Virus record (IMG/VR): IMGVR_UViG_2703718788_000009
Direction: 5' to 3' (one strand)
Length of the DNA: 13,879 bases
Origin: a virus
Lineage: Duplodnaviria > Heunggongvirae > Uroviricota > Caudoviricetes
The notes under the pieces are model-generated. The model did no database searches, had not been told where the DNA came from, and saw nothing but the letters and a program-made list of their open reading frames with translations. A program made the position numbers and the translations under genes. This document shows, one piece after another, positions 309-12,410 of this stretch (positions within the stretch are counted from its first letter, which is position 1; each line of letters opens with the position of its first letter).

Positions 309-2438
309 ATGGCAATGAAGGAAGTCGCCAGACTAACAAACGTTATTTACTGGGATTCTGATAAATCCTCCTGGCGAAAAGAAGTTAAACGGCTTGAGGA
401 TTATAAAAAATCCTGGAAGAAAGCCACCGACGATATTGCTAAAGCTGATTTTAAGTCTAATCAGGCTGTGCTCAGAACACAAAGAACACGCGCTAAGGTG
501 GAAGAGCAGATCGCCAGAGCACAGAAGAAACAACGTGCTCAGGCTGTCAGCCGTCTGACCGGAGGCAATAATCCGGAGCTCTCCTCTATGCGCAAGTTCT
601 ATCAGCAGCAAGCCAGAGAAGCCGCCAGACAACAAAAACTGTTAGATCGTAGTGTTGGAGATGTTCAGCACAGAAAAGCACGTGTAGGGGCCAACAGTGC
701 ACGAATCAGCAGCATGTTTGATGGCTCTCTGGTTGCTCAGTTCCAATCCAGAATTCAGAGAGTTAATGCTGATTATGCTAAAGGGGCTATCAACCTGCAG
801 ACCTATAATCAGAAAATGGCCCGACTCAGAGCTGAAATGAAGATGGCATCTAGAGATGCCACCACCTTTCAAGGCAAGCTAGATAAACTGGCAGCAGGTG
901 CGAGCAAGGTGCATAACAATATCGGCAAGCTTAACAGTGCTTTAGGCAAGATAGCCATTGGCCTGACCGCTGCGGGATGGGGTATTCAGAGAGCTGTCAG
1001 CAGTGCTATGAGCGCTCAATCTGACCATAACTCAGCCTATTATGGTTTGCTTGCTCAGAACAAGGATGATAAAGCCAAGACTGACCAACAGATGGCTTTT
1101 ATCGACAGAATCTCTAACGATTATGGGATGGATCAGCGTGAGGCTGAAGGCGGCTTTATGCGCTTTGCTGCAGCCACACCGAACGTAAAAGAGGGTGATA
1201 AACAGGCTCTCTTTGAGGCTATGGCTATTAAAGGTCGCTCAGTGGGTGCTACTGCGGACCAACAGAACAGGGCTATCGTTGCACTAGGGCAGATCTATAG
1301 CAAGGGCGGTCGAGTGTATGCGGAAGAGCTTAAGGGCCAACTTTCTGAAGCCCTGGCAGGCTCTCAGGTAGATTTCACCCGTGCGGCTATCGATGCCGGA
1401 ATCATCAAGAAAGAGGAAGAATTTAATAAAGCCCTTGAAGATGGCAAGATCACCATGGACAAGCTTCTTCCCTCTCTGGTGAAAATTTGGGGTGCTGCAA
1501 AAGAAACTGACGCTTTTGCTAAATCCATGCAGCAGCCAGAGGTGGCACTGCAGAGAATGAGCAACCAGTTTTTTAAACTAAAGCAATCCTTTATGGGTGT
1601 TGTTGATCCAACTGATAACGTTATTACCCTTTCTGAATCCCTGATCTACATCTTCGAAGACTTATCATCAATTTTCAGCGGCTCAGGTGAAGATGCCAAA
1701 TCACTGGGGGTTATGCTGGGTGAGGCAATGGATACAGTTTACACCCGTGCAGTTTGGGCTATTTGGTGGATTAAGAAGATCGCTAAAGAAATCGGTGAGA
1801 TGTTCAATCTGACCGCACAGGATGCAGGAAGTTGGATAGGCACAATTGTTACCGCTATCATGGGCCTGAAGGTTGCTGGAAGCGTGGCAGGCATGGTGGG
1901 CGGCCTTATCTCTATGCTGTGGAAGCTTGGATCAGCGATCAAGGCTTTATTAGTTGGTGGCGGTGTTGGTGATATCAGCACTGGGGGCACACCAGGTAAG
2001 GGCAAACCAGGTAAAGGCGGTTTAATCGGGAAAGTAGGCAGACTGGGAAGGTTTGCAGGTCCGGCTGCAGTTATTGCTACCGGATTCGATATTGCTAATG
2101 GTCTGGATGCATACTGGCAGAATCCTGATAATCAGCGACAGGAAGGAGTTAAACACCCGGAATGGCTAACCAGCATAGTTAATGGTGCTTCTAGCTTCCT
2201 CGGCCTTGATTATCGTCTCGATGCAGGACGCTACATTACCAGACCAACACCGACGGGTGGAATGGCTATTCAGAATGGTGGCTATCAACCAGTTCAGGTA
2301 AATGTAGTTCCACAAGGTGAGATTTCCGGCAAATGGGAGATAACCATTGATGAGGGTGGAATTGCCAGGGTGATCCAGAAGGAAGTCAGCGATCAGTTGG
2401 ATTGGAAAGCCACACAGGAATCTAATCAGCTTTTCTAA
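309..2438 (+). CDS. phage tail tape measure protein (lambda gpH-like)
   Basis: 709-aa ORF with SD 'gaggt'. Charged, Ala/Gln/Lys-rich N-terminal half, two hydrophobic helices (WIGTIVTAIMGLKVAGSVAGMVGGLISMLW), then a Gly-rich segment (GGGVGDISTGGTPGKGKPGKGG). The segment EEFNKALEDGKIT resembles lambda gpH 'EELNKALKDGKIL', recalled from memory and not verified. Confidence 0.75.
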   Translation: MAMKEVARLTNVIYWDSDKSSWRKEVKRLEDYKKSWKKATDDIAKADFKSNQAVLRTQRTRAKVEEQIARAQKKQRAQAVSRLTGGNNPELSSMRKFYQQQAREAARQQKLLDRSVGDVQHRKARVGANSARISSMFDGSLVAQFQSRIQRVNADYAKGAINLQTYNQKMARLRAEMKMASRDATTFQGKLDKLAAGASKVHNNIGKLNSALGKIAIGLTAAGWGIQRAVSSAMSAQSDHNSAYYGLLAQNKDDKAKTDQQMAFIDRISNDYGMDQREAEGGFMRFAAATPNVKEGDKQALFEAMAIKGRSVGATADQQNRAIVALGQIYSKGGRVYAEELKGQLSEALAGSQVDFTRAAIDAGIIKKEEEFNKALEDGKITMDKLLPSLVKIWGAAKETDAFAKSMQQPEVALQRMSNQFFKLKQSFMGVVDPTDNVITLSESLIYIFEDLSSIFSGSGEDAKSLGVMLGEAMDTVYTRAVWAIWWIKKIAKEIGEMFNLTAQDAGSWIGTIVTAIMGLKVAGSVAGMVGGLISMLWKLGSAIKALLVGGGVGDISTGGTPGKGKPGKGGLIGKVGRLGRFAGPAAVIATGFDIANGLDAYWQNPDNQRQEGVKHPEWLTSIVNGASSFLGLDYRLDAGRYITRPTPTGGMAIQNGGYQPVQVNVVPQGEISGKWEITIDEGGIARVIQKEVSDQLDWKATQESNQLF

Positions 2439-2469: not shown

Positions 2470-2485
2470 CCGGATAAACTCCAGG

Positions 2486-2521
2486 CAAGAAAAAAGCCCC
2501 TAAGTGTTAACAAAGGGGCTC
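2486..2521. terminator. intrinsic terminator-like hairpin, strong on the minus strand, weaker on the plus strand
   Basis: Perfect 7-bp stem agcccct (2495..2501) / aggggct (2514..2520) with a 12-nt loop. The minus strand reads a U5 run after the stem; the plus strand is followed by a pyrimidine-rich 'cttctccggtatcctttt'. Confidence 0.5.
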
Positions 2522-2550
2522 TTCTCCGGTATCCTTTTGATGCGGGGCAA

Positions 2551-2939: not shown

Positions 2940-3392
2940 TCAGCCTCTCCCAACATTTGACCAGTATTTGATTGCACCGATCAAATCATCATAGTGGCGC
3001 ATTGCATCATTGAAGCCTTTATAGCTTGCCCATTGTGGTGAAACTTTGTTATTGCTGAATTGCCCACTAATCAGGATAGTCTCCAAAATGTCGGCGTATC
3101 GCTTGCCAATTCGCTTTCTGACGGCCTCAGAGCTCCCACCCTTTACGATTGCATTAATCAGGGCTTTTGTGTGTCTCAGGCTCTCATAGAGCATTGCAGC
3201 GTGGGCAGATTCCATAAAGGAGCGCTTAGGCAGATCACCCCACCCCTCAGAATGGATAGCCGCCAGTGTGGCGTAATTCAGGCCGCTATAGTGTTTCCCG
3301 TCATCCCAGCCAACCGCTACACCTTCCATCTGTGAGAGCTCTTTATGCAGCTTATCCATCATGCGCTTGTCTATGGTGCAACGGACTTTCAT
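2940..3392 (-). CDS. hypothetical protein, possibly virion morphogenesis or head-tail joining
   Basis: 150-aa ORF whose ATG overlaps the upstream gene's stop in an ATGA arrangement (translational coupling). It is the last gene of the minus-strand structural operon. The functional guess rests on context only. Confidence 0.5.
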   Translation of the reverse strand: MKVRCTIDKRMMDKLHKELSQMEGVAVGWDDGKHYSGLNYATLAAIHSEGWGDLPKRSFMESAHAAMLYESLRHTKALINAIVKGGSSEAVRKRIGKRYADILETILISGQFSNNKVSPQWASYKGFNDAMRHYDDLIGAIKYWSNVGRG

Positions 3393-4168
3393 TTTGTAGC
3401 ATCCTTGGCAAACTTGGCCTGCCTTTGCTGTTTCCAGGCGCTATCAGCTGCGTCATAGTTGCCGCCGTTTTCCTCTAACAACGTGTTAAAATCTTTAGTC
3501 TTAGCCGATGGGGTGTTGGTTGAGTTCCCTACGTTGCTATTCTTCTCAGCACTGTTAACAGCACCCTTTTGCTGTGTTTTGTTCACCTTCTTGCTGTTAG
3601 TGAAGACTCCGGCATTTTCGACCATCTTCACCTTGAAGGTGCGGAATTCTTCAAAGGTGCAATCAATAGTGATGCAGTCACCAGAGGAAGAGCTACGCTT
3701 AACTTCACATTTCGTCATGATGAAGTTCTCAAGGAGTCCGGCATCTTCACTTACCAGGCTAACAAGCTGGCGCTTGTCTCTCATTTCCATAAGTGCCTGA
3801 ACAGCGGCGGCAGGGCGCATAGATTCACGGGGATTATCTGGATCAGTGTTCCGGTCAATGTAGTTCTCTTTCCGGATGATATGAGGAGAAGAGGTAACAA
3901 TACCCGTAAAGCTGACAGATTTATCTTTAATGACGGCATGGTCTGACATGGTGGTGCCATCCTCGACCGCATAGCTCGATTTCTCAACAGGGAACGAATA
4001 GCTGACATCAGAGATAGAGTCAAAGAAGATAGCCACGTTATCGGTATAGTTGAAGCCATCCATTATATTTTTGTTTTGTGAATATCCCCCACACATAACA
4101 GTGAATGCAGGAGATCTCGATTCAGCTTGTTTTGCAGCTGTCAGAGCATCACTAGCCATATTAAACAT
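3389..4168 (-). CDS. hypothetical protein, possibly a virion structural component
   Basis: 259-aa ORF. A GGAGG sits 1 nt before the first ATG and about 10 nt before the second ATG (4159), so the true start is probably 4159 (MASDALT...). Ser/Thr/Asn-rich, with a Lys/Asn-rich low-complexity C-terminus. Confidence 0.55.
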   Translation of the reverse strand: MFNMASDALTAAKQAESRSPAFTVMCGGYSQNKNIMDGFNYTDNVAIFFDSISDVSYSFPVEKSSYAVEDGTTMSDHAVIKDKSVSFTGIVTSSPHIIRKENYIDRNTDPDNPRESMRPAAAVQALMEMRDKRQLVSLVSEDAGLLENFIMTKCEVKRSSSSGDCITIDCTFEEFRTFKVKMVENAGVFTNSKKVNKTQQKGAVNSAEKNSNVGNSTNTPSAKTKDFNTLLEENGGNYDAADSAWKQQRQAKFAKDATK

Positions 4169-4679: not shown

Positions 4680-5729
4680 TTATTTAGCCTTGGCTTTTGC
4701 CAGAGCAGCGGCGGCGGCGTTTTTAACACTCACTTTAACCACAACTTCGGGCATCATGTTCATGAAAGCATAAGAGGATTCAACGAAGATTTCTCGTTTG
4801 GCTCTGGACTCTTCCATATACATGAAAGCTTCACGTGCAGCGCCGTTTGCAAGCTTCAGGTTGCGAGCGCAAGGGCCGAAAAATTGAGTATAAACGCCCA
4901 CCATATCGCCTAACGCATGCGGCTGGAACTGTGGGACCAGATAAGCAGTATTCTCTGGCAGACTATCCATTTGCACCACACGCAGAGCTAAGCCTGGAAT
5001 GCGGAAAGTCGGGAAGCCCGGCAGAATATCCTCAGGGAACATCAGACCTTTATCAGTGATATTCTGATTGCCGAACAACAGCACTTTTCGCAACAGTTCA
5101 TCAGTCTGAATTGCAGCAAAGAGCTCAGCACGGCAGAACAGGGTGAAACCACGCAGAGCGCGAACGACACCACGCTGTTTAACCTTGCTCAGCGCAACCA
5201 GGTCCTGCAGCTGTTTAAGGATATCTTTAGCTAAATCCACTTCTGAGGTGGTTTGCTGTGCGCCCAGCAGTTCGCACACATTCAGTTCTTTACCCTTGGT
5301 GAGGATAATTTTGTTCTCAAAGAGAGCAAGCTGGCGTGCTTCTTCATGGGTCTGGCGTAAGCCTTCACCAAGCTGAATAACACGACGAGCGGTTACAGAC
5401 TCTAAATTCTCTTCGGAATCTTTGCCCGGAACACGGATACCCTGCCAGTCAGAAGGATAAATAGCACTTGATGCGGCAGTGAATGCCATATCACCCGTGC
5501 CCGTTTCACGCTCATCTGCGGTAATGGTAGCCATCTGTTCACCGTAGCGCGGATACTGACCGAAAGCGGTTTGTTTCACCTGGCGAACTTTGTCATATTC
5601 AAATTTAAAGGTATTGCACAGAGCAGTAGTGTTGAAGATATCCATTGCTGAAATAATCTGGTTATCCAGCGGGATGTCTTTAATCAAGCCACACAGATCG
5701 CGGACTTCGAATTCTTTTTTCATCTCCAA
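4680..5729 (-). CDS. major capsid protein (lambda gpE-like)
   Basis: The likely start is the ATG at 5723 with AAGGAGG 6 nt upstream; the track start at 5729 is TTG. The segment SLPENTAYLV and the C-terminal 'REIFVESSYAFMNMMPEVVVKVSV' resemble lambda gpE 'FLPDNTMVLG' and 'REFTMIQSAPLMLLADPDEFVSV', recalled from memory. About 347 aa, preceded by a small beta-rich protein. Confidence 0.7.
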   Translation of the reverse strand: MEMKKEFEVRDLCGLIKDIPLDNQIISAMDIFNTTALCNTFKFEYDKVRQVKQTAFGQYPRYGEQMATITADERETGTGDMAFTAASSAIYPSDWQGIRVPGKDSEENLESVTARRVIQLGEGLRQTHEEARQLALFENKIILTKGKELNVCELLGAQQTTSEVDLAKDILKQLQDLVALSKVKQRGVVRALRGFTLFCRAELFAAIQTDELLRKVLLFGNQNITDKGLMFPEDILPGFPTFRIPGLALRVVQMDSLPENTAYLVPQFQPHALGDMVGVYTQFFGPCARNLKLANGAAREAFMYMEESRAKREIFVESSYAFMNMMPEVVVKVSVKNAAAAALAKAKAK

Positions 5730-7157: not shown

Positions 7158-7418
7158 ATGACGGGGGCTAAAGATATCAGGAGATTGAGGGAAGAGCTGA
7201 TAGCTGAAATTAAAGCTAAGGCAAAGCAAATGGAGATAGCCGCACAAATGGATGTAGCGGAACAGATGTACAAGATGGTTGAAGAGGGAACACCACGGCA
7301 GGTTATAGCAAAAACATTTGGTGTGGGGATCGCCACCGTGCACAGAAGGCTGAAAGCCTATGCCGACTACCACAATATCGAGAGAAAGGAGGATGGGAGA
7401 TTTAAGAAGAATAAATAG
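7158..7418 (+). CDS. small DNA-binding protein with a helix-turn-helix motif
   Basis: 86-aa ORF with SD 'gagagg'. The motif TPRQVIAKTFGVGIATVHRRLK looks like an HTH of the resolvase or IS3 OrfA type; the N-terminus looks coiled-coil. Confidence 0.6.
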   Translation: MTGAKDIRRLREELIAEIKAKAKQMEIAAQMDVAEQMYKMVEEGTPRQVIAKTFGVGIATVHRRLKAYADYHNIERKEDGRFKKNK

Positions 7419-7475: not shown

Positions 7476-8162
7476 ATGTTTAAAGGTCTTGTTGTTACGC
7501 TATTGGCTTGCATTGTATTTGGTCCATGGGTGTTAGTAATTGCTTTACCTATATTGCTGATCATGAGCTTAGGGAATGATATTAAAAAGCTGCAAAAGCT
7601 GCATGCACAATATAAGGAGAATCCCGGCGCGTTCATGGTAAGTCTGGTTATAGTCGCGGGGCTTATTGGATGGGTGTATTTCTCCCTCCCCACAGGAAAT
7701 ACAACTGCAAATGTAGAAGAGGCCGCAGTGGTAGAGGAAAAAGCCAACAAAGGATTCAGATTTATTGTTGGTGTGGATAGCCCAGTATATGGCCCTGAAG
7801 CTGTGGATCCTGCAATGGTGCATGCCTGGTTATGGAACAGAACGGAGAAAGGTAGCTGCAATCAACTAAAAGCGAGCGCCAACATAGAAGAGGAAGGAGA
7901 TACATTTTTCGCATGGTGTAAAGATATCAAAGGCAATGATAGGTGGTTTACCATTACCAATATTGTAGGTGTTTCCCGTTCACTAATGAATCACCCTGAG
8001 GCTAAGAATCCGCTAACAGGTGTCCGATTAAAAGATGGCCCAATATGGATCGATTTATACGGAACACAAATCACTGAGGGCGTGAACAGCGATATCCAGG
8101 ATAAGCTGAAAGACATAAATAATCAGTATGGTGCGATTGTTGAAACCTCTCCTATGAAATAA
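7476..8162 (+). CDS. membrane protein with two N-terminal transmembrane helices and a roughly 150-aa C-terminal domain, possibly superinfection exclusion
   Basis: 228-aa ORF with SD 'agagg'. Hydrophobic segments at about residues 5..30 and 53..70, separated by a Lys-rich loop. Function is a hypothesis. Confidence 0.6.
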   Translation: MFKGLVVTLLACIVFGPWVLVIALPILLIMSLGNDIKKLQKLHAQYKENPGAFMVSLVIVAGLIGWVYFSLPTGNTTANVEEAAVVEEKANKGFRFIVGVDSPVYGPEAVDPAMVHAWLWNRTEKGSCNQLKASANIEEEGDTFFAWCKDIKGNDRWFTITNIVGVSRSLMNHPEAKNPLTGVRLKDGPIWIDLYGTQITEGVNSDIQDKLKDINNQYGAIVETSPMK

Positions 8163-8182
8163 CCACACCTACCCAACCTACC

Positions 8183-8216
8183 AGGGCCACCACTTAGGAT
8201 GGCCCTTTTTATTTAT
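8183..8216 (+). terminator. rho-independent terminator of the 6934..8162 module
   Basis: 7-bp stem agggcca / tggccct with a 10-nt loop, followed by 'ttttatttat', 21 nt after the stop codon. Confidence 0.7.
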
Positions 8217-8220
8217 GTGC

Positions 8221-8280
8221 TATTTAATACCCATTTATCCCCTATTTAATGCCTATTTATTGATTTAATCCGTTTTATGC
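8221..8280. repeat. phased TATTTA(A/T) repeats at roughly 11-bp spacing; possibly bent DNA or an architectural-protein site
   Basis: tatttaatacc / atttatcccc / tatttaatgcc / tatttattgat / ttaatccg / ttttatgcc in succession. Confidence 0.4.
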
Positions 8281-8340
8281 CACAACCGCCCGGTTGACAG
8301 AGTAAGAGAGAGGGTGTAACCCTTTTTCGTAATACTAATA

Positions 8341-8360
8341 AAATCAATAAGTTAGCTTAA
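8341..8360. repeat. copy 2 of 20-bp repeat 'aaatcaataagttagcYtaa'
   Basis: See 2449..2469. Confidence 0.7.
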
Positions 8361-9368
8361 TAAGCCTTTTCTCTATTTTTGTCAAATTTAACATACCCTA
8401 AAAAACTGCAAAATCTGACTGCAAGATTATCTGCAGCTGGATTTCTTACACCTCAATTTGTGGTATCACCCTGACTAGTTTGTGCATAAAATGAACAGTT
8501 TTTAACATTTCCTATTCACCTGGTAACCACACAAAAAGCTAAAAACGAGGCACAGATAATCTTAGAGGCCTGTTTTCTTGTTATCACTATGGGAACGTCG
8601 TAGAAGTGATTTTGATGAAAGATGACCTACCCTATTACACCCCCATTTTTTGTTATCACAATTGCATCCTGTGCGGTATATGGCTGTGTGCTGAAAGCGG
8701 TCTTGGGTGTGGGTGTCAGAAATATCCATTAGCGGTATTAATACCCGTCAGATGTTCGTCTGAGGTGCCAGGCAGGCGCTCCCCCACCTCCCTTTTTTCT
8801 TCTAACAATTCTCAAATATCACACCACTGCCCACCACGTTGCTATTATGTTAATTCTTAAGCTTTGCTGTATGTTGTGCACATTATTTATTCAGGTGCGT
8901 GTACGTAAATTCTGGGCCTCCTTATCATGATTTTTAAATCAGATTTTGTAGTGCGCTTTATTAGTGTAGATAAGATCTATTATGTTAAATGCAATTTTCC
9001 CAACCCTTCAAATCAATGACTTACATGTAAGCATGCACTAACACCCCACACAGCACATTAGACGTGTAGATGTCTATATCCCACATTTTTGATTGTTTTG
9101 TAGTCATTCCCCTGATCATTTAACCAGTATAGTTTGCTATCTGCAGACCACAAAATCGGAATTTACATCTGATTAACATAATCTGTTAGCATGATCACCA
9201 TTACCCACACAACAATAACCCCATGCAAGCCTCTTTAGGCAATTTATCGGCGTGTTGGTGTGAACAGTCTTTCATGTTCTTTATGTATTCATGACTGCAA
9301 GGAATGTATTCATTGGCCTGTGTGGGGGAAGGATGGACTGCCCCAGGGGCCATACTTATGATGCCCGG

Positions 9369-9404
9369 TCAACATAAGTGTTGATAAAATCAAGGGGTGT
9401 TGAT
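9369..9404. promoter_or_regulatory. pair of adjacent inverted repeats (TCAACA-N4-TGTTGA and ATCAA-N6-TTGAT); candidate operator
   Basis: Both have perfect arms; they sit just upstream of the iteron cluster. Confidence 0.4.
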
Positions 9405-9426
9405 CTGCATATTTCCCACACATGAG

Positions 9427-9456
9427 AGGAAATCAGAGCAAAGAGAGAGGAGAGAG
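9427..9456. repeat. polypurine (GA-rich) tract
   Basis: A 30-nt run of almost only A and G on the plus strand. Confidence 0.5.
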
Positions 9457-9465
9457 GTTTGTTAG

Positions 9466-9520
9466 TCAAAATCAAGTCACATTAGAGTCAAATCAAGTCA
9501 AATCAGATGCAATCAATCCC
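9466..9520. repeat. cluster of 'aatcaagtca'-type direct repeats
   Basis: gtcaaaatcaagtca, gtcaaatcaagtca, aatcagatgca, aatcaatccc in tandem. Confidence 0.6.
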
Positions 9521-9521
9521 C

Positions 9522-9586
9522 CACCTGTTGGGATTTCCCACATGTTCAACCATACACAGGAGCTAACCTGTTGGGATTTCCTACAC
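9522..9586. repeat. two copies of 'acctgttgggatttccYaca', 45 bp apart
   Basis: 9522..9541 and 9567..9586 are near-identical. Confidence 0.7.
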
Positions 9587-9639
9587 CTCTTGCACATACC
9601 CCGGAAGATTTTTCCGGTGTGCCATCTTTGCAGGCTCCA

Positions 9640-9807
9640 ACCTGTGAAGAATTTTCACACCTGTAAATCCATACAGCACGGTAAAAACTACCGCACCACC
9701 TGTCAAAATATTTTACTACCCCACCAATAATACGGCCCATACCTGTAAAATATTTTTACTACTACCTGTCAAAATCTTTTACTACTACCTGTAAAAATAT
9801 TTGACAC
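9640..9807. repeat. iteron array with ACCTGT core (part of the candidate replication origin)
   Basis: ACCTGT occurs at 9640, 9659, 9698, 9741, 9764 and 9787, plus 9523 and 9566 in the preceding repeat. The last four sit in units of about 23 bp, 'acctgt(c)aaaatattttactac', three of them directly tandem. Confidence 0.7.
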
Positions 9808-9839
9808 TAATAGATAAAGTAACAGACCACACAATAGAT

Positions 9840-9865
9840 CCCCCCCTAACCCCCCCCCCAGGGGG
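9840..9865. repeat. homopolymer tracts C7-TAA-C10-A-G5, bracketed by GATC sites
   Basis: Read directly: gatcccccccctaacccccccccaggggg, with GATC at 9837..9840 and 9876..9879. Confidence 0.8.
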
Positions 9866-9902
9866 AATGGGGAGGGATCAGAGAGTGGGGAAGGTTTATC
9901 AA

Positions 9903-10027
9903 TATATCAAATTGATATACTTAGCTAGATGTATCAATTAATACACTTAAAGGTGAGCAATGCTTAGCTAGATGTATCAATCCGATACACTTAGAATATT
10001 CTAGATGTATCAATTAATACACTTAAA
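9903..10027. repeat. 17-bp perfect palindrome followed by three direct repeats of about 30 bp
   Basis: Palindrome tatatcaa-a-ttgatata at 9903..9919; repeats 'ctagatgtatcaat..atacactta' at 9920..9951, 9963..9994 and 9999..10027. Confidence 0.75.
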
Positions 10028-10906
10028 TCACGTAACTTATTGTATTTATTAAGAAAAGTCATCTACCTATATATACTACTGATTCGCCTCCGCTCATCAT
10101 TAGTATGGTGTAACTGATTCATGCTTCGCTTACGCTCACATTCATCTACTTACACCCCCTTATCTGAATTGAACATTCCCGTCCAATCCAGCTAAGAGAA
10201 TTGATTGAACATTACCTAACATCCGTTAGCTAACATTCTAATCAATTAACTACTTAAACACTTCCACACCTTCCGGTGGTGCCAAGTAACCTGGCATGGT
10301 GGGAAAAGATTCTGCCGTTTTAGGTAGAATTGATTTCCCACAAATAGTAAGTGTCGGCCCTTCAATGTCACTCTCCTATGAGGGGAGAGATGACGGGCCT
10401 CCTGTGTGGGTGAGTATCGGAGCAGTCTGTGAAGTATGAGCAGGCTGTGAGATACGCTACTGTATATCTGCGTAGAACAGCCTCCGCTGTTTACGCTCTT
10501 TGTGTGGTCCGGCGAATGCGTCAGCATGAGGCCCACATGTGGACCGCTGCCGAAAGCTTGCCAGCGCCGGAAGGAGGCAGCAAAGAGTCTCCCGCGCTCA
10601 TGTGTGGGCGTATACGTAAGATATACATTCATAAATCCAATCCTAGGCCCCTAAATGGCCTTCTGGCTGCATTAACCTGTGTGAGTAGTGCAATTGCATT
10701 ACCTGATGCTTAAATCGCGTTGTAGGGCCTCTCATAGAGAATTTAACTATCAAGATAAAAATTGCAGATCGGTCTATTGACAATCTTATTGCATAAATGC
10801 TATAAGTTATTCTGGTTTTGACACGGTAGGGGCCATTAATAATGCTTACCCCCTTTGCTGTGGACTTGCTTGCACCTATAGCACACCTAAATGATAATAA
10901 TTCTCA

Positions 10907-10935
10907 TTGACAATTGGTTGACAATATGATAAGAT
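10907..10935 (+). promoter_or_regulatory. candidate sigma70 promoter (TTGACA-N17-TAAGAT) upstream of a small ORF
   Basis: Consensus -35 at 10907..10912, a 4-of-6 -10 at 10930..10935, and a second overlapping TTGACA at 10918. Confidence 0.35.
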
Positions 10936-10970
10936 TATAAATAGGGGGAGAAACAGATCCGGAGGTCAAT

Positions 10971-11120
10971 GTGGAAATTACTGATGCAATAGCGATCATC
11001 AACCTGGCTGTACTGTGGTGCGGTGTTGCCTACATAGCCGGAGTAACTGCAATAGACAATCTTGAAGAAAAAATGATAGATAAATACAAAAAGATTGTTG
11101 ACAATTTGACGAATGTTTGA
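10971..11120 (+). CDS. small membrane protein (49 aa, GTG start), possibly holin-like or toxin-like
   Basis: GGAGG 5 nt upstream of the GTG; VEITDAIAIINLAVLWCGVAYIAGVTAIDNLEEKMIDKYKKIVDNLTNV has one transmembrane-like helix and a charged C-terminal tail. Absent from the ORF track. Confidence 0.3.
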   Translation: MEITDAIAIINLAVLWCGVAYIAGVTAIDNLEEKMIDKYKKIVDNLTNV

Positions 11121-11126
11121 TAAAAT
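11098..11126 (+). promoter_or_regulatory. strong sigma70 promoter (TTGACA-N17-TAAAAT) for the leader and Rep operon
   Basis: -35 at 11098..11103, a 17-nt spacer, -10 at 11121..11126. Confidence 0.6.
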
Positions 11127-11176
11127 ATAAAGCATAGGGTAATTCTCAGCATGTGAATTTTCCTTAAACAGACTAG

Positions 11177-11206
11177 CGGGGCTTGTCTTGAGTCCCGTTT
11201 CTTTTT
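11177..11206 (+). terminator. intrinsic terminator or attenuator in the leader between the promoter and the first operon gene
   Basis: Stem cggggc / gtcccg (one G-U pair) with a 9-nt loop, followed by 'tttcttttt'. It lies about 45 nt after the predicted start and 44 nt before the ATG at 11250. Confidence 0.55.
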
Positions 11207-11249
11207 AAACCTACATCGCACAGGCGATGAGCTGACAGGAGATTGAATC

Positions 11250-11459
11250 ATGGCTAAAACCGGACCGATAAGCCAGCTGGTAAACTGGACTACTGACGAA
11301 ATCGTCGAGAACGTGCTTAAAGGTAACTTTCGCAAAACTTCCGTTTATGCATTTATTCGAAAACACAAAGGAGAATATCCACACATTGAAGCGGCAATAG
11401 AAAAATTAAACTTTATTAAACTTGAGCGCCAGCTTGAAAGATATAAACACCTACTTTAA
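11250..11459 (+). CDS. hypothetical small basic protein, possibly a regulator; first gene of the Rep operon
   Basis: 69-aa ORF with SD 'aggag' 8 nt upstream. Confidence 0.55.
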   Translation: MAKTGPISQLVNWTTDEIVENVLKGNFRKTSVYAFIRKHKGEYPHIEAAIEKLNFIKLERQLERYKHLL

Positions 11460-11495: not shown

Positions 11496-12410
11496 ATGAA
11501 TATTGAGTCTGTTTTTAATATAACTTTAAATGATGATCCTAGTATCCTTTTGCTGCCAATGCTCATAAATAAATCTGGACTATTAAAAAGAGGCGACGCA
11601 AGGGATATCTATATTTACATGTGGAATACTTACTATCTCCACGCTAAAAAAGAGGCCGCCAAGGTGTTCAGCAAGAAGACTAAAGGAAGAAGCCTCAGCC
11701 AGGATATGAAAAACTCCATCAGAAAAGAGTGTTTTGCTATTAAAGATAAAGATTCCTGTGTGGAGATCTCTTATAAGGATATAGAGGAAAGAATTGGAAT
11801 ACTGCGACCAAATGCAGTAAGGGCAATTAAAAAGCTGGAATCTGAAGGAATTATCACCTGCCTTAAAAAAGGCAATAAGCATAACCCTTATGCATCATGG
11901 CAAATTAATGTCGGAATCTTTGAAATGATGGAAAGAGTAGGGATTGAAAACCTCATTGGGTGGGATCTCTTAAAACCATATTGGAAGAAAGAACAGGAAG
12001 CAGCCGGAAGAGGGGAGGGGGCCAAAGCTCCACAGGAAGCTCCAAAACAAGCCGCACAGCAGCCTGAAGACACACCCGAAGGGGTGACCGTAGGTCACCT
12101 GGCTAAGCCAGCGAAAGAGTCCAAAGTGGTGCAATTCCCTTCTGTGAAAGATAAAGACGTTAGCGTAGAGCACAACTCTTATTCCGAAAGTGTGACAACG
12201 TCACCTGTTAAGGCAAACAAGAAGGAGGCATCTAAAGTGATAGATATTTCTTCTTTTATGGCAGATGAAGATGATACGCAAGATGTGTGGTATACACCTT
12301 CAGAAAATGATTATAGTGGTAGTGGTGGTTATGATCCTTATGGCTATGATGAGGATGAATACAACCCATTTGAAGATGAATATACAAATGATTCCGCTAT
12401 CCCTTATTAA
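11496..12410 (+). CDS. putative replication initiator (winged-helix, lambda-O/RepA-like N-terminal domain) with a long disordered acidic C-terminal tail
   Basis: 304-aa ORF with SD 'agagg'. The segment 'VEISYKDIEERIGILRPNAVRAIKKLESEGIITC' resembles the winged-helix DNA-binding domain of lambda O 'RITDSQLSEITKLPVKRCNEAKLELVRMNII', recalled from memory. The C-terminal 140 aa are low-complexity and end in ...EDEYTNDSAIPY. Confidence 0.55.
   Translation: MNIESVFNITLNDDPSILLLPMLINKSGLLKRGDARDIYIYMWNTYYLHAKKEAAKVFSKKTKGRSLSQDMKNSIRKECFAIKDKDSCVEISYKDIEERIGILRPNAVRAIKKLESEGIITCLKKGNKHNPYASWQINVGIFEMMERVGIENLIGWDLLKPYWKKEQEAAGRGEGAKAPQEAPKQAAQQPEDTPEGVTVGHLAKPAKESKVVQFPSVKDKDVSVEHNSYSESVTTSPVKANKKEASKVIDISSFMADEDDTQDVWYTPSENDYSGSGGYDPYGYDEDEYNPFEDEYTNDSAIPY
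12072..12120. repeat. 50-bp repeat, copy B, embedded in the Rep-like coding sequence
   Basis: Matches 6842..6890; encodes ...TPEGVTVGHLAKPAKE... in the disordered tail. Confidence 0.8.

Follow-up and report, generated by a model that had tools for sequence, protein, structure and literature searches.

Stacked repeat arrays of mixed specificity in the probable replication-control region of a circular, plasmid-like putative phage satellite

The repeat hub and the plasmid carrying it

The viral sequence IMGVR_UViG_2703718788_000009, a stretch of 13,879 nucleotides that is referred to here as the window, contains a repeat-rich hub at positions 9420-10030 (Table 1). The first and last 21 bases of the window are identical, which makes it a complete, closed circle with a length of 13,858 bp. 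The other members of its family are circular Escherichia coli plasmids of about 13.2-13.7 kb, and numerous further family contigs of 13.3-14.4 kb were obtained from E. coli, Shigella, and E. albertii. The records that are complete all represent circular plasmids or circular contigs, and an integrase is not encoded. The hub is located in the middle of 2.7 kb without a credible gene (8163-10900) and very probably forms the left and middle portion of the region that controls replication of this 13.86-kb circular element, which looks like a plasmid-form phage satellite. In a first description based on the letters of the window, hereafter called the sequence-only reading, the hub had been proposed to be one composite origin recognized by a Rep-like protein encoded downstream. 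A function in replication control was supported by the comparison with 30 relatives, all oriented on a conserved anchor at 9404, but instead of a single composite origin the hub appears to be a stack of arrays with different specificities.

Two tools independently recovered the repeat families and their coordinates. All eight ACCTGT cores proposed for 9420-10030 were located on the plus strand (9523, 9566, 9640, 9659, 9698, 9741, 9764, and 9787), which is eight of the ten plus-strand copies in the window and compares with about 0.1 expected (Poisson P ~1e-13). Neither the full 22-bp ACCTGT unit nor the full 16-bp palindromic core described below has another copy in the circle. Of the supposed tandem of four 23-bp units, all four exist, but only the last three form a strict tandem and the first lies 43 bp upstream of them. 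The two 20-bp repeats, the run of AAATCAAGTC repeats, the homopolymer C and G tracts, and the perfect 17-bp palindrome TATATCAAATTGATATA (8+1+8) were found as described. The presumed 30-nt polypurine tract is a purine-rich stretch in which 31 of 35 positions are purines and the longest pure run measures 18 nt. Three direct repeats are present as well, but their units comprise 27 bp rather than 30 bp, and two are identical while the third is divergent. The stretch 10030..10260, which had been called AT-rich, has a GC content of 35.5% compared to 44% overall, but only its first part, 10030-10085, is truly AT-rich (25% GC).

Among the relatives, the region 9520-9810 is hypervariable and consists of plasmid-specific sets of ~20-bp units, which are small dyads around an A/T-rich centre, such as CCGGAAgatttTTCCGG, TGTGAAgaattTTCACA, GTAAAAtaTTTTAC, and TGGGAttTCCCA. 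The left 20-bp unit at 9523 was found in nearly all relatives, and the C/G tract in most of them, with a deletion in L012-L017. A coding function of the hub, for which the sequence-only reading had seen no credible open reading frame (ORF), was rejected: the relatives have no annotated coding sequence here, and the substitutions in the adjoining block show no codon periodicity.

This adjoining block, 8374-9420, comprises ~1 kb of non-coding DNA that is 90-96% conserved among ~30 relatives, with invariant runs of up to 42 bp. It might act as a packaging signal, contain regulatory DNA, or encode a non-coding RNA. It includes the sequence AGTGTAGATAA-GATCTA-TTATGTTAAAT (8963-8990), most of which lies inside a run that is invariant across the family (8959-8989). 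We take this sequence to resemble a dif/cer-type Xer site, with 11 of 11 positions of the XerD arm and 7 of 11 of the XerC arm matching dif, and it may be a multimer-resolution site.

Table 1. Features of the window and their positions
Feature	Position	Strand	Remarks
Tape measure protein gene	309-2438		
Tail-completion-like protein gene	2940-3392		
Dit-like protein gene	3389-4168		
Major head protein gene	4680-5729		
Small HTH_7 protein gene	7158-7418		
Purine-rich tract	9424-9458		kept across the family
Short AAATCAAGTC-type repeats	9464-9516	+	period 21, two copies; differ between relatives
Two 20-bp units ACCTGTTGGGATTTCC(C/T)ACA	9523-9542, 9566-9585	+	95% identical; dyad core TGGGAtTTCCCA
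Single unit ACCCCGGAAGATTTTTCCGGTG	9598-9619	+	dyad CCGGAA/TTCCGG; resembles arrays of B7-type plasmids
Unit ACCTGTGAAGAATTTTCACA, then ACCTGTAAATCCATACAG	9640-9676	+	dyad TGTGAA/TTCACA in the former; kept in many relatives regardless of initiator type
Four units ACCTGT(C/A)AAAATATTTTACTAC	9695-9808 (starts 9695, 9738, 9761, 9784)	+	last three with 23-bp period
AT-rich spacer CTAATAGATAAAG...	9807-9839		
C7/C10 runs, then G runs	9840-9896		present in class-B and some class-A relatives
One beta-type unit TATCAATATATCAAATTGATATACTTAG	9897-9925	+	17-bp palindrome inside it at 9903-9919
Three alpha-type 27-bp units CTAGATGTATCAAT(TA/CC)(A/G)ATACACTTA(A/G)	9925-10027 (starts 9925, 9968, 10001)	+	
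AT-rich block	10028-10085		25% GC; predicted unwinding element
Right part of class-A origin module	10086-10343		in all class-A relatives, not in class-B relatives; holds the skew minimum
Structured non-coding block	10344-10597	+	~86% identity over ~210 bp to a non-coding stretch in 122 rV5-like genomes
Two strong sigma-70-like promoters	10907-10935, 11098-11126	+	drive the 49-aa membrane ORF, the 69-aa ORF, and the initiator gene
49-aa membrane ORF	10971-11120	+	GTG start
Terminator-like hairpin	11175-11199		shortly before the 69-aa ORF and the initiator gene
304-aa class-A initiator-like protein gene	11496-12410	+	

Outside of the 2.7-kb stretch, the window encodes head and tail proteins, of which the Dit-like protein shares ~50% identity with the 'tail tube initiator' of rV5-like Vequintavirinae. 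Neither a terminase nor a portal protein, an integrase, or a recognisable replication enzyme was found among the window proteins. Since these functions are missing and the capsid and tail genes are akin to those of rV5-like phages, the element looks like a plasmid-borne satellite of rV5-like virulent phages (Vequintavirus). A description of the plasmid family itself was not found in the literature searched. Comparison of the whole plasmid with phages by megablast gave no match, and the same holds true for a scan for exact patterns in one genome per species. In a set of 72,556 plasmids, the class-A initiator (tblastn) and the DNA of 9890-10350 (blastn) each had a single match, the family member NZ_CP020521. 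Another record, NZ_CP043822.1, has 39,610 bp, about three times the unit length, and matches the window in three places; it is either a plasmid trimer or an assembly concatemer. One of the few variable family genes, alongside that of the initiator, is located at 7476-8162 and encodes a predicted membrane protein of 228 amino acids (aa); in the relatives it codes for 173-236 aa, its DNA is not alignable, and its variation is independent of the repeat types. No tRNA was detected in the window with ARAGORN. In the gap after the tape measure gene (2485-2525, minus strand), a weak Rfam match to ctRNA_p42d was obtained (23.6 bits, gathering threshold 50, E 0.25), which is probably due to chance.

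Co-variation of repeats and initiator-like proteins

The 304-aa protein contains a winged helix at about residues 69-147, followed by a Pro/Gln linker and a disordered acidic C-terminal half with the invariant tail ...NDSAIPY. Two classes of proteins are encoded at this locus in the family, class A, which includes the window protein and comprises 45 clusters at 90% identity, and class B with more than 100 clusters. In total, more than 145 initiator clusters were found on contigs of 13-14 kb. Class A is homologous to class B over winged helix and linker (hhalign 98.4%, E 1e-14). Class B passes the Pfam model HTH_36 and matches the PHROG families 'replication initiation protein', 'O-like', and 'DnaD-like helicase loader' with E-values down to 2e-12 (3e-9 for the DnaD-like loader). 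The O-like families were matched by the window protein at E 4e-5 and by class B at 1e-7 to 1e-10. Neither the window protein nor the class-B initiator matched Pfam Phage_rep_O. Matches to Rep_3 and RepA_N (PF06970) were likewise missing, DnaD_N gave an E-value of 0.13, and the remaining Pfam matches of the initiator were generic winged-helix and HTH_36 matches. A search of PDB sequences revealed marginal winged-helix matches only. The 162-aa and 147-aa proteins encoded downstream have no family match, and no other replication gene was found on the plasmid. As the plasmid must nevertheless replicate, the 304-aa protein is regarded as its putative initiator.

The acidic tail YDPYGYDEDEYNPFEDEY(T/I)NDSAIPY, encoded at 12320-12407, is invariant in 19 class-A proteins except for the Asn of NPF and the bracketed residue. 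Its tip NDSAIPY resembles the C-terminal motif DDDIPF of SSB, and the tail may serve to recruit the replisome.

Directly left of the conserved AT-rich block, class-A plasmids carry three or four palindromic units of ~27 bp. The entire segment 9897-10343 was found only in relatives sharing the window's version of the 304-aa protein. In the window, the three units of this type, termed alpha, each hold an imperfect 16-bp dyad TGTATCAATTAATACA; the units 9925-9951 and 10001-10027 are identical and the middle one (9968-9994) differs at its centre and 3' end. They are spaced by 43 and 33 bp and thus lie on one face of the helix. The ten class-A elements fall into three repeat types and three variants of recognition helix and wing, and the two were matched in all ten: alpha with LRPNAVRA...KHNPYASW (the window and L009), beta with LQPNIARA...RWNPAATY (L001, L012, L013, and L015-L017), and gamma with ARTDALKA...RWNPKATY (L011 and L014). 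This pairing holds across recombinant C-terminal backgrounds. When the whole plasmid was scanned for columns that are fixed within the types and differ between them, 135 were found, 57 of them in 9801-10100, 66 in 11501-12000 with a peak over the winged helix, and just 4 in the intervening 1.4 kb. Because of this small number, simple linkage is insufficient to explain the association. The sequence-only expectation that the Rep-like protein recognizes the hub thus finds a counterpart in the 27-bp palindromic repeats, which we predict from this co-variation to be the binding sites of the resident 304-aa initiator. The single beta-type unit, just distal to the alpha units, is heterologous to the resident alpha-type protein and corresponds to the cognate type of the beta carriers.

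In the 19 class-B elements, a four-unit tandem array directly left of CTAATAGATAAA matches a 48-aa helix-turn-helix (HTH) segment of the protein, with 8 HTH types and 7 array types. The similarity of the arrays correlated with that of the HTH segments (Mantel r 0.82, p = 2e-4), compared to r 0.42 for the rest of the protein. Protein pairs that are less than 60% identical elsewhere but at least 90% identical in the HTH segment have their arrays in common (0.86-1.0), whereas pairs that are ~85% identical elsewhere but have unlike HTH segments do not share them (0.64). Taken together, the comparative evidence for a pairing of protein and site is strong. The equivalent of the AT-rich spacer 9807-9839 follows directly 3' of the four-unit array in class-B plasmids and is therefore a candidate for the unwinding element of the class-B origin.

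The ACCTGT units of the window co-vary with class B and not with the resident protein. Their array is of the type found with B2/B3 initiators, as in NZ_CP178698, L020, and L028-30, but the window does not encode a B2/B3 protein; the two 20-bp units at 9523 and 9566 belong to the type seen in the proximal arrays that accompany B1-type initiators. Which class-B-type array is present in a class-A plasmid appears to be arbitrary: B2/3 in the window, B4 in L001, B7 in L011, and two B6 units in L012-17, plasmids that lack both the spacer and the C/G tract. L009, a complete circle with an assembly overlap of 141 bp, has almost none. The proposal that the ACCTGT iterons are the sites of the resident 304-aa protein was therefore abandoned, since they are arbitrary or missing in plasmids with the same protein class, and they probably represent dispensable orphans in class A.

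Replication model and alternative explanations

Further features of the region are in line with a replication origin at the right end of the hub. The least stable duplex of the whole circle is located at 9985-10085, irrespective of whether windows of 40, 60, or 100 bp were used. The cumulative GC skew, a check suggested along with the sequence-only reading, also came out in favour: after detrending, the minimum was at 10274, ~250 bp from the alpha repeats, and the maximum roughly opposite at 2409. The minimum was found at the equivalent place in 18 of 21 relatives and in class B lies just after the proximal array, near the equivalent of 9840-9896. The motif TTTCCCACA, considered as DnaA-like, was discarded because it is not enriched (7 copies versus 3.9 expected). 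Between the hub and the initiator gene, two strong promoters bracket the 49-aa membrane ORF, and their arrangement with the terminator-like hairpin suggests an attenuated or tiered control of initiator expression.

We consider it probable that the hub comprises stacked arrays of mixed specificity in which the rightmost, alpha-type module is the working origin and the ACCTGT arrays are an orphan class-B origin. The evidence for origin activity is circumstantial, and from the arrangement of the sites we infer the following course for binding, unwinding, and the direction of replication. Dimers of the resident 304-aa initiator would bind to the three alpha dyads, all of them on the same side of the helix, and thereby open the adjacent AT-rich block. 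Replication would proceed bidirectionally from there, with the disordered acidic C-terminal half of the initiator recruiting the replisome. The alpha array would additionally set copy number and incompatibility, as in iteron plasmids. The arrays at 9523-9808 together with the AT-rich spacer and the C/G tract would be the origin of the homologous initiator class B encoded by sister plasmids, left behind after a swap of the initiator/origin module, and may still titrate foreign initiators.

Several observations weigh against this model. The evidence from the protein consists of a winged-helix domain, which is also typical of repressors, and the source databases label these proteins as MarR, GntR, or HTH regulators. 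The structural model is weak outside residues 69-147: AlphaFold with an alignment of 42 sequences predicted the winged helix with a pLDDT (predicted local distance difference test score) of 70-81 and the remainder as disordered, and with a shallow class-A alignment the pLDDT was 34. A Foldseek search of the PDB gave only non-significant, generic winged-helix matches with E-values of 0.008 or higher. The top chain was 4pql, described only as 'N-Terminal domain of DNA binding protein', and 5kbj ('Structure of Rep-DNA complex'), the pTZ RepA-iteron complex cited in PMC7145576, ranked 29th. The initiator gene is 1.5 kb away from the repeats. A DnaA box with up to one mismatch is absent within ~550 bp of the alpha repeats and the AT-rich block; the only one-mismatch site in 9300-10500 is at position 9379, a perfect box is missing near the hub, an IHF consensus was not found in 9300-10500, and a scan for oriC 13-mers was negative near the hub. 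GC skew is confounded by gene orientation and is thus supporting evidence only. The strongly conserved non-coding DNA next to the hub (8374-9420) could hold another origin, a weak promoter-like site with 9 of 12 matches lies inside the AT-rich block (10049-10077), and a homologous 116-aa protein, encoded by rV5-like phages, carries an annotation as transcriptional regulator.

The gene for this phage protein is part of a module that can be compared with that of the satellite. In phage rV5_ev147 (L032, 3358-3865) and in L031, the 116-aa HTH_36 gene is directly followed at its 3' side by four tandem 21-22-bp dyad repeats (TAACTGTCCGTGATACGGACAC) and then by ~130 bp of AT-rich DNA, and these parts lie upstream of the stretch that matches the structured block of the window (4001-4210 in L032). 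The phage protein aligned with the N-terminal domain of the class-B initiator with an E-value of 1e-4 and a probability of 56% (hhalign). In its layout, the phage module thus corresponds to the origin modules proposed for the satellites. In the structured block, pairing of a two-tier hairpin (GTGTCGGCCC...GGGCC) is kept between satellite and phage via compensatory changes.

An array of hairpin-rich cassettes, each beginning with (C)TGTGTGGG(G), was observed at 10400-10720 and at the equivalent positions of L002-L030, with order and combination varying between relatives. The cassette motif and its complement CCCACACA flank the modules at 9321/9412 and 10336/10404. The segment 10528-10615 (plus strand) gave a weak full-length Rfam match to the bacterial small signal recognition particle RNA, which is not significant (20.8 bits, gathering threshold 40, E 0.54); the sequence ...CCGGAAGGAGGCAGC... 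in it resembles domain IV of 4.5S RNA.

Sharing of the structured block with a helper-type phage could indicate that repeats and protein serve only helper-induced, lytic replication or copy control, with the maintenance origin elsewhere in the 2.7-kb non-coding region. Candidates would be the conserved block 8374-9420 or the phage-like block 10344-10597, which possibly gives an RNA primer. This explanation is also favoured by the 90-96% conservation of the first of these blocks, by the compensatory changes in the hairpin of the second, by the lack of a DnaA box close to the repeats, and by the precedent of the Vibrio PLE satellites, whose RepA fires solely during helper infection (PMC7145576). 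We nevertheless regard it as unlikely. Rfam searches of the whole window and of 8160-11260 revealed no RNA I/II-type or other replication RNA and only weak matches below threshold, the skew minimum and the least stable DNA are located at the junction of repeats and AT-rich block and not in 8374-9420, and the hypervariable specificity of the initiator is as expected for an incompatibility determinant of a plasmid.

Alternatively, the hub could be an operator or immunity region in which the winged-helix protein is a repressor and the repeats are cooperative operators like lambda OR1-3. A promoter in the AT-rich block would then read rightwards into the structured block and the rep operon, and the co-variation would reflect immunity specificity. 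Sites that are palindromic, helically phased, and present in three or four copies would suit this explanation, as would the promoter-like site in the AT-rich block, the MarR and GntR names in the databases, and the phage homologue annotated as regulator beside four similar repeats. It is quite unlikely in our view, as 22 bp lie between the end of the last alpha site and the weak -35 hexamer downstream of it, no alpha site overlaps a predicted hexamer, and the strong operon promoters are 0.9-1.1 kb away and lack an alpha unit. Moreover, nearly all PHROG matches are to families of replication initiators or loaders, no other replication function is encoded although the plasmid must replicate, the tandem 23-bp class-B arrays have the classic geometry of iterons, and skew and stability minima coincide in this region. 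It is very improbable that the arrays serve as a partition centromere or packaging (pac/cos) site to which a centromere-binding protein or the helper terminase binds: short phased repeat arrays occur there too and a plasmid without terminase must carry a packaging signal somewhere, but a ParA/ParM-type partner is not encoded, the arrays co-vary with a plasmid-encoded protein, and a signal read by a shared helper should be conserved, whereas the arrays vary more than any other DNA of the family and have been lost in part from complete relatives, for which reason the packaging-site idea was rejected.

The model of stacked origin arrays can be extended by a more speculative proposal, which we put forward as a tentative possibility. 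The specificity of initiator and iterons would be under diversifying selection, the stacked arrays would be decoys or latent origins, and the module would descend from that of the helper phage. The selective pressure could be incompatibility of co-resident satellites or origin-targeting nucleases of the helper, as in the case of Odn in ICP1/PLE. The arrays would titrate the initiators of rivals or be fired as latent origins by a rival initiator, and the structured block would be kept so that the helper replisome can be recruited during infection. A tblastn search of 50,697 phage genomes with class-A and class-B initiators gave no match, and an Odn-like chimera was therefore not identifiable in this way. 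The orphan arrays and the module common to satellite and helper phage point to testable ways in which satellites could compete with one another and with the helper.

Comparison with known replicons

Classical iteron plasmids such as pSC101, R6K, RK2, F, and P1 have three to seven phased direct repeats beside an AT-rich unwinding element and encode their own initiator, and the iterons are incompatibility determinants. The plasmid described here resembles them in having at least three phased direct repeats, an adjacent AT-rich element, and a plasmid-encoded initiator, and the 23-bp period of the ACCTGT units is typical. It differs in that the initiator is not of the Rep_3 type (WH1-WH2), that a DnaA box or IHF site is missing beside the repeats, and that the units are themselves dyads and an inverted half-iteron is not present at the rep promoter.

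The O protein of phage lambda has ~300 aa, with a winged helix at the N-terminus that a flexible linker joins to a C-terminal interaction region, and ori-lambda is composed of direct-repeat dyad iterons followed by an AT-rich region. Size and domain order of the putative initiator and the layout of dyad iterons and AT-rich DNA correspond to this system. As to the protein family, the PHROG families 'replication initiation O-like' were matched and Pfam Phage_rep_O was not. However, the lambda origin is located inside the O gene and the one proposed here 1.5 kb upstream of the initiator gene, and a P-like helicase loader is not encoded.

The module of the rV5-like phages (Vequintavirus) has the same order of parts as that of the satellite and shares the structured block. 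In contrast to the satellite initiators, the phage protein lacks the C-terminal half and is annotated as a regulator, and none of the 30 satellites contains the phage repeat CTGTCCGTGATACGGACAC.

Among known systems, the modular RepA/iteron replicon of the Vibrio PLE satellites comes closest. The sites bound by PLE RepA are three semi-palindromic direct repeats of ~30 bp in non-coding DNA, and the DNA-binding domain of RepA co-varies with the origin (PMC7145576, PMC8263062). The replicon modules were swapped repeatedly by recombination, and the iterons are the target of a nuclease of the helper phage (PMC7145576, PMC8263062). Like the PLEs, which depend on ICP1 as helper in Vibrio cholerae, the element described here appears to be a satellite of a virulent phage. 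Both have an initiator with an N-terminal DNA-binding domain and a separate C-terminal part, three units at the proposed or known origin (27 bp with a 16-bp imperfect dyad here), and a DNA-binding domain that co-varies with the origin as a swappable module. There are also clear differences. PLEs are integrated and replicate upon infection only, whereas the present element is maintained as a plasmid. The window protein does not match Pfam RepA_N, and a homologue of the origin-directed nuclease was not found in the phages by tblastn. Furthermore, heterologous arrays are stacked beside the cognate one here, and two PLE replicon types contrast with at least three class-A and 8 class-B HTH types among 30 elements. 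If the proposed model is correct, the family would provide a natural series of at least 11 initiator recognition helices, resolved at the sequence level and each matched to its binding site, on a plasmid backbone that hardly varies, and thus a ready-made system for studying the evolution of DNA-binding specificity and plasmid incompatibility. It would also extend modular replicon swapping, known from the two Vibrio PLE types, to E. coli satellites of a virulent phage group that is used in phage therapy.

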